DNA of 64,000 nt from Octopus vulgaris (taxonomy: Eukaryota): NCBI GenBank assembly GCA_951406725.2, contig OX597830.1:50468001-50532000 (forward strand), read 5' to 3'. Each line of letters starts with the position of its first letter. Position 1 is the stretch's first letter. Below are positions 1-61,719 of this stretch, piece after piece. Under the pieces are notes generated by a model. It was given only the letters and a program-made list of their open reading frames with translations, had not been told where the DNA came from and did no database searches. The position numbers and the translations under genes were made by a program.

Positions 1-330
1 AAAGGTGATAGGGTCTTAGTGAGTAGCCTATTATTATGGGAGGCGATTATCTGGGCGAGGTTTTTAGTGTTGGAGAAAGCTATCCTAACTTTATGCGAGT
101 TAACCGTGGAGTAATATTTGGAATTTCTGGGGAAGTTATTGGCGATGGCTTGTCTAAACATGAGGGGGAGGTTAGTTCTAATCTGCTTACCAAAGGGGAT
201 TACAAACCATATATGCTTATTCCTATCAGTGTGATGGATCGGGACGCCAGGGGAATTACTCCTGTAAGACAAACGGGGCTTGGTTTTTTCACAGCGGGGG
301 GTTTCCTTGACAAGGCAGGCTTAGATGAAC
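1..330 (-). mobile_element. Penelope-like retroelement ORF fragment (linker between RT and GIY-YIG), runs off the window start
   Basis: Minus-strand translation of 227-1: DRNKHIWFVIPFGKQIRTNLPLMFRQAIANNFPRNSKYYSTVNSHKVRIAFSNTKNLAQIIASHNNRLL. This matches the PLE linker pattern IWF-P...TN...FP...N...KISYS...N...I.SHN and is homologous to the ORF at 62111-62398. Confidence 0.75.
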
Positions 331-496
331 ACACACACACATAAAACATGATATATATTTTTTTTTTTTCTGCCACCCAACGGTTATCACGGCAGTAGCC
401 ACTGACAGCCGAACGATCAAACGCACACACGTACACAAAAAATGTTTTCTACCCCTACGCCAACACACACATATATAGAACAGTATACACACACAC

Positions 497-1053
497 ACGT
501 CTCTAAGTAGATTTTTTCTCGCCCCTTATAAAACATCCAATATTCTTTAAATAGTCAGAACTTTATTCTCGGTCACAAAGAACATCTACGCACCCTCACC
601 CACATGATTGACCGATGCTTGACCCGTTGAATTCTTCAGCCACCGGTTCTCAACATACACTGATAAACAGTTTCGCCATGGGCTCTTAGGAGCATAGTTC
701 GATTTGTTTTTGCTCCGCCTCTGTTCTGTTTTTGTTTTTCCAACGGATTTCCTATTTTCTTCCTGAAGAGAAAGACACAATATGGTCCCATTATTCCATC
801 GGATTTTGGTAATTTGTGCCTTTCGAAACACGTGTAGAATGAAATAAAACGATTTCTGTTCAATCTGCGTTCAGCTCCATTTCTTCAATTCACCAATAAT
901 GTTCTAATTTCAATTATCCGCACCAACGCACGGTTGCAACACCATATGGTTGTACCTCCAACCGTGCTGTTTTACTGCTGTGATTTTTGCTACTAAGGTA
1001 TCGGTTAAACTTTTGATTAATCTACTACAAGATTATTCATCTTTCTATTTCAC

Positions 1054-1056
<3 letters not shown>
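497..1056 (+). mobile_element. PLE pseudo-LTR-like 3' terminus, inverted relative to the PLE body at 1-330, ending in (TA)n
   Basis: Contains a hammerhead at 753-846. Its tail (TTTGCTACTAAGGTATCGGTTAA...AAGATTATTCAT) is homologous to 60650-60715. Faint GIY-YIG C-terminal traces (TSLSRF, APYK, LN.SEL) near 498-575. Confidence 0.6.
753..846 (+). ncRNA. Type I hammerhead ribozyme with canonical core, predicted cleavage after GUA at 836
   Basis: Stem I TATTTTCTTC/GAATGAAATA (9/10 pairs); CTGAAGA 763-769; stem II GAAAGACACAA/TTGTGCCTTTC; GAAA 825-828; palindromic stem III ACACGTGT. Confidence 0.8.
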
Positions 1057-1095
<39 letters not shown>

Positions 1096-2205: not shown

Positions 2206-2236
<31 letters not shown>

Positions 2237-2303
2237 GAACGTATGGCGTTACATATATGTATGTATTTGTATGTATATGTAGTTACACTTATGTATATAT
2301 GCT

Positions 2304-2334
<31 letters not shown>

Positions 2335-2384
2335 ATCTGTCTGTCTGTCTGTCTGTCCGTCCTTCCGTCCACGATCCGTCCGTC

Positions 2385-2416
<32 letters not shown>

Positions 2417-2661
2417 GCAGAGTAACAATTATAAAGTACTTTAAAATATATTCGCATAGTGCATACAATATGTTGGGTAAAATAAAAAAAAAAAGCCACA
2501 CAGCCGTCAACCCACAGACACACAGACACACCAACAAATACAGCTATTTGTGTCTATGAGTGTGCCTGCGTGACCAACAGATCTAAGCAGTCGGTGGAGG
2601 ACCAGGTGAGATAGTGTGAACCACAGACCAAGTACCGCTCACCCATCCTGCGACAACTACC

Positions 2662-2894
2662 TATTTCTTTACTACCCACAATGGGGCTAAACACAGAGAG
2701 GACAAACTAGGACAGACAAACGGATTAGGTCGATTATATCGACCCCAGTACGTAACTGGTACTTATTTAATCGACTCCGAAAGGATGAAAGGCAAAGTCG
2801 ACCTCGGCGGAATTTGAACTCAGAACGTAACGGCAGACGAAATACCGATACAGCATTTCGCCCGGCGCGCTAACGTTTCTGCCAGCTCGCCACC
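2662..2894 (-). mobile_element. SINE family A, full length
   Basis: Reverse complement of the 1697-1925 consensus. Confidence 0.9.
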
Positions 2895-3257
2895 TTTTCT
2901 TACCACAACTACCACCGCCACTGTTAACATCACCTCTACAACCACCACCAATTTACCGAAGATTATACTGCTGTCATCAGTTGTCCATGTTTGCTGTTGT
3001 TTAGCATGGAGCGAATTATGACCGTATACAGAAATTATGAAAGACTTTCAAGCCATCACCATCCCAACTTCATTTCCACGTATTGTGCATCTTAGACTAC
3101 ATTAGATCATGCCTGCTTCCCATTGTTATAAGATAAACTTCTTTCAAAAGAAAACAGACATAAAATGACTTAAGGGGCATTTAGCGGCCTTTTCTAGCAG
3201 AGTAACAACCCCAGAAATGTTCCTTATTTATGTCTATTGTTGTTGTTGTTGATGTTG

Positions 3258-4511: not shown

Positions 4512-4643
4512 ATATACATTATATATATGTACATATATATACATGTATATATATATATATACACACACAAACATATATACATATACATACATATTATATA
4601 CATATATATAGATATACATACATACATTCATACATACATACAT

Positions 4644-6417: not shown

Positions 6418-8016
6418 TGTTTTTGTCAGAAAAGTAGATATAAGTTTTTATCAAAGTTGTTATATATTCTATAATTTTCAACGACAATAAACACGATATT
6501 AATTGGTATTGTCTGAGATTTTGGTGTAATTTGAGAGGATAATACAAAAGTTATGAATGATATAGTGATTTACTGCAAAACGCATGGTGGCCAAAATGAT
6601 CAAAACGGTTGAAGAAATAACAAAATAATCAAAAACTGACAGAGAATGCTGGAATTATTTCATATTTAGTGTGAAGCCCTTTAGCTTCAATCAAAGTTTG
6701 ACATTTTCGACTGCATGGGGAAATTAAATGTTCAATTTCTTGCTGGGTGATCTTATTCCATTCTTCCTAAAGGGCATTCCATAATTGCTCGGTTGTTTTA
6801 GGATTTCTGGCTTTCAAACGTTCTCCGAGAATATTCCACACATTTTCAATAGGAATGAGATCTGGGCTTTGAGCGCAGGCCAATCGATAACAATAACCTT
6901 TTCAGCCTTGAGGAAGTTCATGACCACCTTAGCCTTGTGACATGGGGCATTGTCTTGCATGAATATGGGTGGTCGCTTAGTTGAATTTCTCAGCACAAGC
7001 AAGACATGATCTTTTACAAGTTGTTTATAAACTCCTGCATTTACCTTTCCATGTAATCGCACCAAAGTTCCTACAACATCTCCAGATATCATCCCCCAAA
7101 CCATGTCACTTCCTCCACCGAATTTAACACTAGTCTTAAGGCATTTAGGTGACAATTTTTCACCTGCTTTTCGACGAACGTACCTTTTCCCATCTGAGCC
7201 AAATAACATAGACTTAGATTCATCACTGAAATGCACCGTTTGCCATTTTTCTTGAGACCACAACACATGTTCGGTTGCAAAGGTAAGACGACAACTTTTT
7301 ATTCTTGGAGCTGATCAGTGACTTCACTGCAGGTGCTCTTGCTTGTAGGTCATGTTCAACTAAAGGACGAGACACAGTTTTTCGAGATAAAGTTTACTTC
7401 AGTACAATGCTCATTTCCCGAGAAACAGCAGCAGCAGTTTTAAATCTGTCCTTTTTAACCAACTTTACCATAGCACGATCTTCTCTCTTGATCGTTTTTC
7501 TTGGCCTACCTGTAGACTTTCTTGCTTCACACGAACCACAATCATCGTAGACCTTAAGAATACCGTGAACAACATTTTTTGACTTGTTAACAATCTTTGC
7601 AATTTAATACTTAAATTATCCTTCTTTCGAAGCTTAATAATCTGCTGACGAATTGGTAACGGAGTAAGTGGCATTATATTAACAAAGTACACTGCAGATA
7701 TTCTTACTAATGTTTAGTAAACGAACTGTCACGTAAACAAATTCAAAACATTAGAGTTCGACGGTTAAATATACTAAAACATGGAGTAAAAGCAACTGTT
7801 CTGATCATATTGGCCGCCATGGGTTTTGCAGTAAATCACTAAATCATCAATAACTTTTGTATTATCCTCTCAAATTACACCAAAAGCTCAGACAATAACA
7901 AATAATATAGTATTTATTGTCTATGAAAATTATAGAATATAAAACAACTTTGATAAAAACTTATACCTACTTTTCTGACGAAAACAACGCCGTTCTGAAC
8001 ATTTTGGCCGCAACTA
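6418..8016 (-). mobile_element. Tc1-family DNA transposon with ~220-bp IR/DR-type TIRs
   Basis: 6418-6611 is an inverted copy of ~7793-7986. The right TIR has direct repeats at its inner and outer ends (CTGTTCTGATCATATTGGCCGC and CCGTTCTGAACATTTTGGCCGC). Confidence 0.92.
6659..7674 (-). pseudogene. Tc1 transposase pseudogene (DD34E), frameshifted
   Basis: N-terminus MPLTPLPIRQQIIKLR; motifs WQTVHFSDESK, VKFGGGSDMVWG, FMQDNAPCHKAK, DWPA, then frameshift to SPDLIPIENVW; C-terminus IEAKGLHTKY. Confidence 0.92.
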
Positions 8017-32112: not shown

Positions 32113-33220
32113 GCGCTTTCCTGCAGCTCGTCTCCATGACCGAACTACGCTCTTAGATCAAAAAGAGGCCGAAGAAGGGCGAATGTGACCGCGAGTGTCG
32201 CATTGCTCTCAAGCAAGTATGCCGTTCCGGGTCGACTTTGAGCGACTTCAACACAATCAAAGCATTCTATAGGGGATTAGTGAAGGAGAGGTACGACTAC
32301 GATCTCAGGGCGAACCTGAGCGTCGACGAGAAATACCTCACCCGCCTGTTCAAGACGACTTTCGGGCCGGGACCTATGGACAACTTCCAGAGATCCCTGG
32401 CCTGGCAGTGCTATCGAGAAGCGCTACCCGTTCGGGATAAGCTCTACAGGCATGGCTCAAGAAACACGGGGCCGACCTGTCCGAGATGCGGTCAGAGCAA
32501 CGAAACAGTTCTGCACGCACTCGTACAGTGTCCAACTATTTCCGGCCTGTGGGCCTATGTCGAACGACTGCTATCGCGTGTGGGGCGCGTCAGTTTATCA
32601 ACCGAGTCTATCGTGAATATTGTCGCGTCTCCTTCCTTGAAACGAGAAGGAAGAGCCATTTTCATCATACTTGTGGCTATGGTGAAAGAATGTGTATGGT
32701 AGACGCGTCTGAAAGGTCTAGAGACAAACACTTTCCTCTCTGGTGAATCTCTCATCAACTTCTTCAAGTATCACTTGAAGAGGAAGGTGAGACTAGAGAG
32801 GGAAGTTTTGTCTAGTGAATGTTTTAAAAAAAGATGGGTGAATGTAGCAAGGATGGCACGTGGGAATGACGGAGCCAGCTTGAGCATAATCCTATCAACC
32901 AAAAAAAGAAAGGAAAAAAGAGAGCTACTTACTGTAATGTGTTTTCTTGCATGACACTATTGCCCGAGGGCCCCGTGGTCTTTTCCGTAGGCTTTTCTTT
33001 CCACAGATAAACCTAATCTGTTTCCCTTTTTACATTGACATTTCTGTGATACACGATCACTAATGATCAGCCCCACTTTTTTTCTCACGGTCCCTTTTGA
33101 TCGGAATTCGATCCACTTTTTTCTTTTCTTTTTTTTCTTCGCTTCTCCCCCCCGCCACCAAAGCTCTTCTTTGTATTTTGTCCCCTCTGTATTCAACCCT
33201 GTGTGGCCAATAAAGAAACA
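32113..33220 (+). mobile_element. Tx1/L1-group LINE, 5'-truncated ORF2 C-terminus (zf-RVT-like CCHC) plus 3'UTR
   Basis: LAWQCYREALPVRDKLYRHG...TCPRCGQSNETVLHALVQCP...LW; in-frame TAG at 32700-32702 then TRLKGLE...FKKRWV; AATAAA near 33209; flanked on both sides by (TATC)n. Confidence 0.9.
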
Positions 33221-58805: not shown

Positions 58806-59224
58806 TGACAATGATGATGATGATGTTGTTGGTGATGAGGATGTGGTGATCTTCACGATGGCAGAGACGATATGGGGATGTTGATGTTGCGTTCATGATG
58901 ACATCGAAGTCCTCGAGGACGACGACGACGAAGACGAAGACGAGGTCAATGATGATGATGATGATAGTGGCGATGATGATGATTGCAATGACGGGGATAC
59001 GATGATGCAGTGATAAAGATAATGATGAAGAATTTGATGTTGATGATGACGACGACGACGATGACGACGGCAATGGAGATGATGATGATGATGCGGATGA
59101 GGATGATGAGAATGATGAGGATGATGATGGTGATGATGAAGATGATGCTGATAATGACGACAAAGTCTATGACGACGGCGATGATGACGACAATGACGAC
59201 GTAGGAGGCGGTTATGACAATGGC

Positions 59225-59287
<63 letters not shown>

Positions 59288-59306
59288 GATGATGACGACG
59301 ACGATA

Positions 59307-59352
<46 letters not shown>

Positions 59353-59626
59353 CGATGATGGTGATGATGAAGATGATGCTGATAATGACGACAAAGTCTA
59401 TGACGACGGCGATGATGACGACAATGACGACGTAGGAGGCGCTTATGACAATGACGATGATGATGATGATGATGATGGTGATGATGGTGATGATGATGAT
59501 GATGTCGATGACGATGATGATGATGATGATGATGATGATTTTGATGATGATGACGACGATGATGATGATGGTGTTGATGATGGTGCTGCTGCTGCTGCTG
59601 CTGATGATGATGAAGATGATGATGAT
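58806..59626. repeat. Degenerate (GAT/GAC)n tract with internal duplication
   Basis: About 59123-59210 is repeated at about 59354-59441. Confidence 0.9.
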
Positions 59627-60156
59627 ACCAGCTTGTACCACACAGACTGGTGTGTCACAATGGAATTCGGGACCGCATCCCCGGCAGAAATGGAATAAAA
59701 GGAATTACAATCCTCCTCTAGAATTGTTGAATTAAAAACAATTTCACAACAGCAGCGTCACAACACGAAAACAATGTTGCATTAGCATGAACAACATGGA
59801 AACGGGTCTGACAAAGTGTTTCTCGACAGGAAACCATGTTTAACATTGTTTTCTTGATTCGTGGTTCTGAGATTTACATTCGAGAGAAATATTTTGTCGG
59901 TGTGATAATGTAAAAGAGACTTAGAGTGACCAGGTCATAGATGTAGTCTGCGGTCTGGTGGCAATTGAATATAAGCAGATACAATAGAGTGTCAGTGACC
60001 AGATCGTAGGGGTACACCATAAGATAGGCGGTTTATAAGAACTGGGCAAAGGTCATCTTCGGTCAAACATTTTCTGCAATAGTTTCAGTTCGGCTTAACT
60101 AGTGTTTTGATAATAGAATTAATTAGTACATGAGAACTAGGGAACTGCAGAAATAA

Positions 60157-60230
<74 letters not shown>

Positions 60231-60270
60231 AATAAATGAAAGAATGGAGTTGAACGACGAATTAACGAAA

Positions 60271-60369
60271 TTCCTTTATTCTCGACATATGTTTCGAAGG
60301 TTGCAAATTCTTAATTTCGAAGGAATAAAGGGTGCATTATGCCGCCTTCTCATCAGGAAAAACAAGGAA
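60271..60369 (-). ncRNA. Type I hammerhead ribozyme (mirror copy)
   Basis: Exact reverse complement of 60426-60524. Confidence 0.85.
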
Positions 60370-60425
60370 CTTATGTCAGCATCAAGATGAACAAAAATTT
60401 TTGTTCATCTTGATGCTGACATAAG

Positions 60426-60524
60426 TTCCTTGTTTTTCCTGATGAGAAGGCGGCATAATGCACCCTTTATTCCTTCGAAATTAAGAATTTGCAACCTTCG
60501 AAACATATGTCGAGAATAAAGGAA
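60426..60524 (+). ncRNA. Type I hammerhead ribozyme with canonical core, predicted cleavage after GUC at 60511
   Basis: Stem I TTCCTTGTTTTTC/GAGAATAAAGGAA (11/13 pairs); CTGATGA 60439-60445; stem II GAAGG/CCTTC; GAAA 60500-60503; palindromic stem III ACATATGT. Confidence 0.85.
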
Positions 60525-60715
60525 TTTCGTTAATTCGTCGTTCAACTCCATTCTTTCATTTATTTGTATAAAAAAACACACAAATTTCCACACGAAAGCA
60601 CGTGATCTCTGCCCTTGGCATGTAGCTTCAACCGTATTTTTCTGACGTGAATTTGCTACCCAGGTATCGGTTAACCGAATTATCCATAATAAGATAATTC
60701 ATTCAACTACTCAAA

Positions 60716-60768
<53 letters not shown>

Positions 60769-60837
60769 TTATATTTACACAAACAGATGTACTTATATAT
60801 ACATACATATACATATACACAAATATGTATGTGTATA

Positions 60838-60954
<117 letters not shown>

Positions 60955-61719
60955 TTGTCTGAGAGAGTCATTTTCTTTTAGTGCCTTATTACTTAACACA
61001 CACACACACACACACGCCCACATACTTTATTATCAAAGCTGCAAAAACATCAAAAAGTTATCACAAAAATCGGAGTTGAATAAAAAATCAGTTATAAAAT
61101 TAAATCTAAAGTACTAAAAACGCTAATATGAGTAAAGTTTTACATGGAATAAGGCAAAACCGAGTTCGGCGAAATTTGAATCAGAACTTAGCTACATCTC
61201 TAACCGCTTTGTCCTGTTCGCTAAGGTTCTCTGAGCATCGCTGCCGTATGAACAATAACGATAATAAAAATGATAAATAAATGGGATAATAGTAAAATAA
61301 TTAAGTAATCGAAATAAAAAGATAAAATAAAACAAGAAAAAATAACTAAAAAATATATAACAAAAAAAAAAAACGATTCGGATATTAGATATCTTTAATA
61401 CACATTTTGGTCGATGGTAGAAGCTCTCTTTAATGTGTGCATTAAAAATCAATGTTCAAAGGTTTTATGGGCGAAGTTACGATGTAAAAATACTTTCATT
61501 TTGTTTATAAAATGTGTGTTTAAGAGTAAAATTTACATTAATATAATGAATATGAACATAAAAATATAAAGGTAAATAGTTTGTATCCGGTCGAAGGTTT
61601 TCTCGGAAGGTGAAAATGTAAAATGAATGTTATACAAAGTGGTGCCGGTTTAAAATGACAACAAAAAAAAAAAACAACCTGAAATTGCGAAATCAATGTT
61701 ACCCCTATGGTATTTTTCG

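Follow-up and report, generated by a model that had tools for sequence, protein, structure and literature searches.

The non-coding insertion at positions 60225-60718 (494 bp in its whole length) of the window, by which we mean the entire 64,000-nucleotide stretch of DNA analysed here, is probably a 5'-truncated Penelope-like element (PLE) insertion in a (TA)n microsatellite, in which two 3' ends of the element are joined head to head and the two ends of the cut target primed reverse transcription at two different sites of the element RNA, E2 and E1. The features are listed below with their coordinates and strands.

60158-60228, no strand: left flank, (CA)n followed by the (TA)n target microsatellite
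60225-60397, minus strand: tail-less, inverted 5'-truncated PLE end, with its 3' terminus at the family's E1 site, where it adjoins (TA)n
60269-60371, minus strand: mirror of the plus-strand hammerhead motif, with cleavage predicted between 60284 and 60283
60393-60402, no strand: apex AAAAA/TTTTT at the near-self-complementary AAAAGTTTTT of the family; unique in the genome
60398-60570, plus strand: direct 5'-truncated PLE end (3' UTR/pseudo-LTR, pLTR) up to site E1
60424-60526, plus strand: type I hammerhead with CUGAUGA (60439-45), long stem II (60446-60499), GAAA (60500-03), palindromic stem III (60503-10) and a predicted cut after C60511
60571-60718, plus strand: one-sided 148-nt tail ending at site E2; its sequence recurs upstream of the ORF, at the 5' end of the full element
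60716-60762, no strand: right flank, (TA)n

The insertion and its parent element

Exact base-by-base extension from 60397/60398 revealed 173 complementary pairs and a spacer of 0 (173+173 bp, 346 bp, 60225-60570), so that the perfect spacer-less palindrome described in an earlier, sequence-only reading of this DNA was confirmed. The same is true for the tail, which is present at one side of the palindrome only (60571-60718, 148 bp), and for the (TA)n at both borders of the insertion; the first four bases of the palindrome (TATA) are common to the insertion and the flanking (TA)n. This is the sole non-simple palindrome in the window (arms of at least 15 bp, spacer of 10 or less) and the longest perfect zero-spacer palindrome among the loci examined. 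A genome search found its apex once, i.e., the count of copies sharing this apex, which the same reading had proposed to make, is one (its own locus). As the apex is single-copy in the genome, the palindrome is not an amplifying unit. A MITE or another self-propagating palindromic unit was rejected on the same ground and because the centres vary among loci. The apex lies at the family sequence AAAAGTTTTT, which becomes self-complementary once its G is lost or changed, as in locus L005, the only other insertion carrying such a variant (G of AAAAGTTTTT lost).

The window consists of microsatellite-rich animal DNA. Elsewhere it contains a tandem duplication with a 271-bp unit (1102-1643, 97% identical), a fragment resembling a Tc1-type transposase (6814-7314, minus strand) and one resembling the C-terminal part of LINE ORF2 (32157-32702, plus strand), both judged by eye from the translation. 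A long degenerate (GAT/GAC)n tract at 58893-59704, with an internal 231-bp duplication and several open frames, is probably a microsatellite.

Right arm and tail together (60398-60718) gave 3213 first-look candidates in the genome; the best 40 were scored, and all of them are full length and, apart from the locus itself, 96-97% identical. We estimate the family at no fewer than hundreds to thousands of copies. Longer copies continue into an ORF for RT and GIY-YIG endonuclease (EN), which is open over 833 aa in locus L063 and has 296 homologues; this frame, aligned with 14 homologues, carries the YRDD and IY...YIG motifs. Pfam and PDB sequence searches with the parent protein returned no informative match. 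The full unit (~3.54 kb) starts with the tail sequence, followed by a candidate splice acceptor and ATG (CATATACAG, just past E2, L063 oriented 4570-4615); a candidate splice donor, CAG/GTATCG, is located within the tail (window 60662-60669). In L054 (oriented 2218-3222), an intronless 335-aa frame resembling a biogenic-amine GPCR lies ~1.2 kb from a near-full-length family insertion. The family possesses the features of EN+ PLEs, namely a pLTR formed by partial tandem, an inverted 5'-truncated copy, a one-sided tail and a hammerhead motif on the sense strand of the pLTR. The sequence-only reading had been right in proposing a Penelope-like origin and a coding-free insertion with an inverted pLTR and a type I hammerhead in the pseudo-LTR.

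Within the PLEs, the Hydra clade is characterized by DKT, an RW motif, CxxC and CxH, no CCHH, a CxCX5C linker and a (TA)n target (Craig et al. 2021, PMC8557442, available text). The parent carries a C-terminal GIY-YIG, SDKTRN, RIRWL (L for K), CGVC and CMH, and no CCHH. It shares with the clade, as far as the available text describes it, the C-terminal GIY-YIG, DKT, the RW motif, CxxC/CxH around E and N, the lack of CCHH, the (TA)n target and the sense hammerhead in the 3' repeat, but differs in its unit length (3.5 kb vs under 3 kb) and in the linker. Indeed, the CxCX5C linker zinc finger is absent in 8/8 readable family copies and present in all 14 aligned homologues; the linker before EN (P0002 residues about 565-710, 146 aa) is Asn-rich and contains 0-1 Cys in the eight copies. 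The ORF of a sister family (see below) likewise has no CxCX5C linker and possesses an Asn-rich or low-complexity one, yet this family inserts into (TA)n. As the CxCX5C linker is missing, the parent is filed as a Hydra-like PLE rather than as a typical Hydra member, an assignment made by motifs against the published description. The parent also has, in common with EN+ PLEs, inserts rich in Asn that surround the RT thumb and precede EN (PMC8557442, PMC3846280, available parts). The available text of PMC8557442 reports for Penelope-13_HM of the Hydra clade an inverted 5' copy with a hammerhead on both strands; the stem II loop has 3-10 nt in the Hydra hammerheads listed there vs 44 nt in the 60225 family. 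Identity with Hydra-1_Obim was rejected, its hammerhead sequence being different, and the accessible part of PMC13282606 contains nothing on the 60225 family.

One E1 and one E2 end per inverted insertion

Family copies end at either of two 3' sites, E1 (corresponding to 60570) or E2 (about 60718), and (TA)3 or more adjoins 56/63 ends at E1 and 82/89 ends at E2. We examined 112 loci (91 distinct), 56 of which contain head-to-head pairs; three complex loci, L059 (E2+E2), L069 and L104, were left out of the pair counts. E1 is paired with E2 in all clean head-to-head insertions (53/53). The locus samples are best-scoring matches and no random draws, and for two of the four locus sets the presence of a tail was a condition of selection. 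In the tail-independent sets, E1+E2 was found in 15/15 (hammerhead query) and 6/7 (ORF query, L069 included) cases, i.e., 21/22 in total, and E1+E1 in none. Independent choice of the ends would yield E1+E2 in at most half of the pairs; by hand arithmetic, the chance of 21/22 is then about 1e-5.

The arm reaching farther 5' is the tail-less one in 24 of the 53 pairs and the tailed one in 21, and the two stop within 5 nt of each other in the remaining 8. In the 24 pairs with the tail-less arm longer at the 5' side, neither arm can have been copied from the other, and two separately primed cDNAs are needed. The arms share no sequence at all in 4/53 pairs, the junction shows an overlap of at least 1 nt in 35/53, and the tailed arm extends no farther 5' than about E1 in 8/53, as in twin priming; the two-ended extension of target strands proposed below also resembles L1 twin priming. 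The near-symmetric centres (8/53) are more than independent truncation would suggest, a point against the two-ended model proposed below. Besides 60225, zero-spacer centres were found in at least 10 loci, at TTTAAA, ACATATGT (4 loci), AATT, AATATT and TTCGAA. Pattern searches at self-complementary motifs gave 14 loci, including 12 new ones. A spacer is absent from 9 of these 12 and from L117, and 10/12 are E1+E2, the other two carrying internal deletions. As the zero-spacer loci were sought at self-complementary motifs, the link between the two is partly circular and shows recurrence, no frequency. The zero-spacer centre of the insertions L141-L144 coincides with the palindromic stem III of the hammerhead itself (ACATATGT), at a distance of two bases from the predicted cut. 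A second perfect palindrome of the family (212+1+212 bp) is present in L104 (G000:C1:137075520). Its centre lies at the 5' hotspot described below, and it includes two hammerhead regions, both complete (core CUGGUGA). We rejected a reading of L104 as a tail-less pair because another piece of tail follows beyond a TA run, which makes the locus complex.

The 5' truncation hotspot, A/TTATCGC (A/TTATCGCTATGGGCTC), lies ~40 nt upstream of the position of the window's apex, and 12/15 stops there fall at one base; L011, L013, L014, L016, L025, L029 and L030 are among the loci truncated at it. The sister family echoes it at A/GTTTCGC (A/GTTTCGCCATGGGCTC). The hotspot resembles an initiator consensus and is a candidate internal transcription start; a search for a non-templated cap-G at this site revealed no consistent extra G.

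The sister family (59% protein identity) has the corresponding two termini, 157 nt apart, and E1+E2 was read by eye in 10 inverted insertions among 31 loci. At least 40 of its copies are 100% identical over 161 nt, and it forms tandem arrays with an intact 899-aa ORF, showing how a very recent family looks. One such array (L182/L183, G000:C1:119512500-119530900; period 3624 bp, intact 899-aa RT-GIY-YIG frame) is likely an active source locus of this family. A head-to-head sister insertion is also present at window 1-1063 (continuing into L184 6470-9063), with an E1 arm of ~1.8 kb, an E2 arm of ~0.8 kb, a junction with a 5-nt overlap at 246-250 and a long-stem-II hammerhead at 745-855.

The parent element, the two fixed 3' termini, the presence of one of each per inverted insertion and the (TA)n flanks were observed directly; we infer the steps that would connect them. 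The GIY-YIG endonuclease would cut both (TA)n strands, and the TA-ended strands would pair with UA-rich RNA sites (UUUAU/GUAU at E1, CUACU(C/U)A at E2; the TA pairing is assumed) and be extended. Both cDNAs would stop about 170 nt upstream of E1 and be joined by microhomology, and a self-complementary joining point, here the A/T run, would leave no spacer. The E1/E2 rule, repeated in the probably active sister family, is better explained by two cDNAs primed separately than by a single snap-back. In its general form, i.e., that in both sister families each broken (TA)n end primes a separate cDNA, using two fixed RNA sites ~150 nt apart with one site for each end, followed by microhomology fusion, with perfect palindromes as the self-complementary special case, we regard the proposal as evenly balanced between right and wrong. 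For the 60225 copy itself, it counts against two-ended priming that the apex requires the loss of the AAAAGTTTTT G, a rare variant.

A PLE protein was shown in vitro to nick and extend both strands, with two internal RNA starts that bracket the tail (Frangieh et al. 2024, PMC11167929, available part); the start sites described there have no homology to the target, whereas our model assumes pairing with TA. This Poseidon PAc mechanism is similar to our model in the extension of both target strands and in the two internal RT starts bracketing the tail. In contrast, the sites of the 60225 family are ~150 nt apart and both UA-rich, and the duplicated arm and the strict one-of-each pairing are not described in the accessible part of that paper. 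In the literature searched (subscription papers and Repbase entries aside), we found no statement of a one-E1, one-E2 rule or of twin priming in PLEs.

The sequence-only reading had interpreted the locus as a snap-back insertion. As a family mechanism this fails, since snap-back cannot yield the 24/53 pairs with the tail-less arm farther 5', nor the 4 pairs without common arm sequence. It could be retained for the symmetric 60225 copy, where an E2-primed cDNA would fold back at the A/T run and extend itself to E1, or an antisense RNA would prime itself as proposed for rotifer Penelope (PMC3846280, available part). The arms are identical even in three rare variants, 8/53 pairs have symmetric centres and L014 and L030 show short fold-backs (5-10 nt) at the 5' hotspot, all of which would suit such an event. 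However, snap-back gives no reason for the copying to halt exactly at E1, the normal priming end of the family, and even for this copy we consider it unlikely.

The hammerhead motif and a possible RNA function

In the plus arm, stem I (60424-38/60512-26) has 13 pairs and a 2x2 internal loop, and the core (CUGAUGA 60439-45, GAAA 60500-03, GUC) is followed by a predicted cut after 60511. Stem II is unusually long, its GAAGG (60446-50) and CCUUC (60495-99) forming 5 bp around a 44-nt insert, and stem III (ACAUAUGU, 60503-10) is self-complementary. CUGAUGA is present in 83/90 family arms and GAAACAUAUGUC in 84/90. In the sister family (65% identity, window 745-855) the core is kept, and the comparison of these two sequences reveals that one base pair in each of stem II (G-C to A-U) and stem III (U-A to C-G) has changed in a compensatory manner, a covariation that lends support to the predicted fold. 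The Rfam scan suggested in the sequence-only reading found no hammerhead on 59500-61500, nor on the single arm with tail at E <=10; only generic hairpins under the gathering scores were matched. What that reading had called a canonical type I hammerhead on each strand is therefore present as motif and core, but "canonical" was an overstatement.

Metazoan PLE hammerheads are of type I with a short palindromic helix III, which implies dimeric activity, and their in vitro activity is low; pairs of such motifs on opposite strands, 100-700 bp apart, have already been reported (Cervera and De la Pena 2014, PMC4209133, available text). The 60225 motif is similar in type, palindromic helix III and opposite-strand pair but, compared with those in the available text, has a long structured helix II extension that is unmatched by the Rfam models. 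Both hammerheads at 60225-60570 appear to be passengers of the pLTR. The sequence changes of the 60225 copy have weakened its long stem II: the probability of the correct stem II register is 0.13 (family median 0.99), and the ribozyme fold is less stable in only one of the 90 arms and more stable in all others. The z-score of the single-arm MFE is -1.55.

The locus could also be regarded as a functional RNA device, either a self-silencing ribozyme switch, as proposed in the sequence-only reading, or a hairpin used by the host as siRNA or ADAR substrate. The catalytic core is intact, and transcription, if it occurs, would produce a perfect hairpin of 173 bp (-299.9 kcal/mol) well suited as a dsRNA substrate. 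However, a read-through RNA would contain the antisense arm before the ribozyme arm in either direction and would fold into the 173-bp duplex, with the decayed dimer-type ribozyme staying off. With the antisense arm transcribed first and the active single-arm fold (about -18 kcal/mol) some 280 kcal/mol less stable than the duplex, the predicted state is off, and a switch is unlikely. Furthermore, the insertion starts ~40 nt downstream of the likely transcription start of the family, so that host read-through would be needed (if the hotspot is a promoter, this copy is without one). The low stem II register probability and the dimer-type stem III with its low in vitro activity (PMC4209133, available text) also argue against a device, and dozens of sibling insertions yield similar hairpins, so 60225 is not singled out. 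We consider such a function very improbable; for the hairpin to serve as a dsRNA substrate, the host would have to transcribe it, and the same applies to the hairpins of many siblings.

Age, known relatives and significance

That the palindrome is a fold-back read or an assembly artefact is hardly credible, as its arms, although 100% identical and spanned across the apex by none of the contigs listed from four other runs (k-mer contigs break at palindromes), end on the left at the natural E1, followed by (TA)n(CA)n and unique DNA with no mirror of the right flank, the unique left flank being present in all four runs and an equal layout with differing arms in 53 loci. Contigs from the four runs, which are DNA or of unclassified type, showed neither the apex nor an empty site nor this allele. 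The k-mer share is too noisy to be of use, the value to be expected if the insertion were absent (0.80) being higher than the best one observed (0.69).

The insertion had been called very recent, which was not supported. Its arms are identical to each other, and they differ from the family majority at 5 sites, 3 of them rare; T60489 and C60528 are private to the locus. No scored copy other than itself (best 40 of 3213) exceeds 97% identity to 60398-60718, and, as noted above, all but one of the 90 arms have a more stable ribozyme fold. The arms of other pairs differ by 2.6%, and at this family average zero differences have a probability of ~0.02, which fits youth but also chance among ~50 pairs. 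The insertion may be young and derived from a divergent template. Homogenisation of arms by gene conversion was rejected: the difference first seen between 6 symmetric loci (12/1036) and 28 others (104/4020; P=0.005, class set post hoc) was not replicated with 12 independently fetched symmetric loci (19/880, P=0.55).

Insertion units of EN+ PLEs have inverted 5'-truncated copies and one-sided tails of 30-40 bp (Craig et al. 2021, PMC8557442), and palindromes at head-to-head junctions, a self-priming proposal and Asn-rich inserts have been described for PLEs (Arkhipova et al. 2013, PMC3846280; available parts of both). The 60225 insertion agrees with these units in the 5' truncation, the head-to-head inverted copy, the junction palindrome and the tail at one end. 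Unlike the usual unit, the whole insertion is a stump of 494 bp whose centre is fully symmetric, and the tail (148 nt, and 157 in the sister family) is longer than the usual 30-40 given in the available text of PMC8557442. Non-LTR retrozymes (bioRxiv 10.64898/2026.07.22.740005, available part) are likewise non-coding, PLE-derived and equipped with a type I hammerhead, but are head-to-tail tandem units, whereas 60225 is a single head-to-head insertion with a unique centre and itself no amplifying unit; identity with them was rejected, since there are no hammerhead-bearing tandem units.

Inverted pLTRs, junction palindromes, one-sided tails and opposite-strand hammerheads are already published PLE features, and the 60225 locus is real and ordinary in kind, one of many dead stumps. 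The single locus matters little; the family statistics are of modest importance, and whatever is of value here comes from the pairing rule of the family, its long tail and long stem II, and the lack of the linker finger. Craig et al. 2021 (PMC8557442, available text) explicitly ask how PLE head-to-head repeats with a one-sided tail arise. In two families, one E1 is strictly paired with one E2, with a long tail telling the ends apart; at the genomic level, this speaks for two-ended priming and defines the start sites exactly. That (TA)n targeting has persisted after the loss of the linker finger speaks against a requirement for the linker in targeting. If true, the two-ended rule would replace the idea of antisense self-priming and imply (TA)n targeting without a linker zinc finger, and it could be tested with the intact 899-aa ORF of the sister family.
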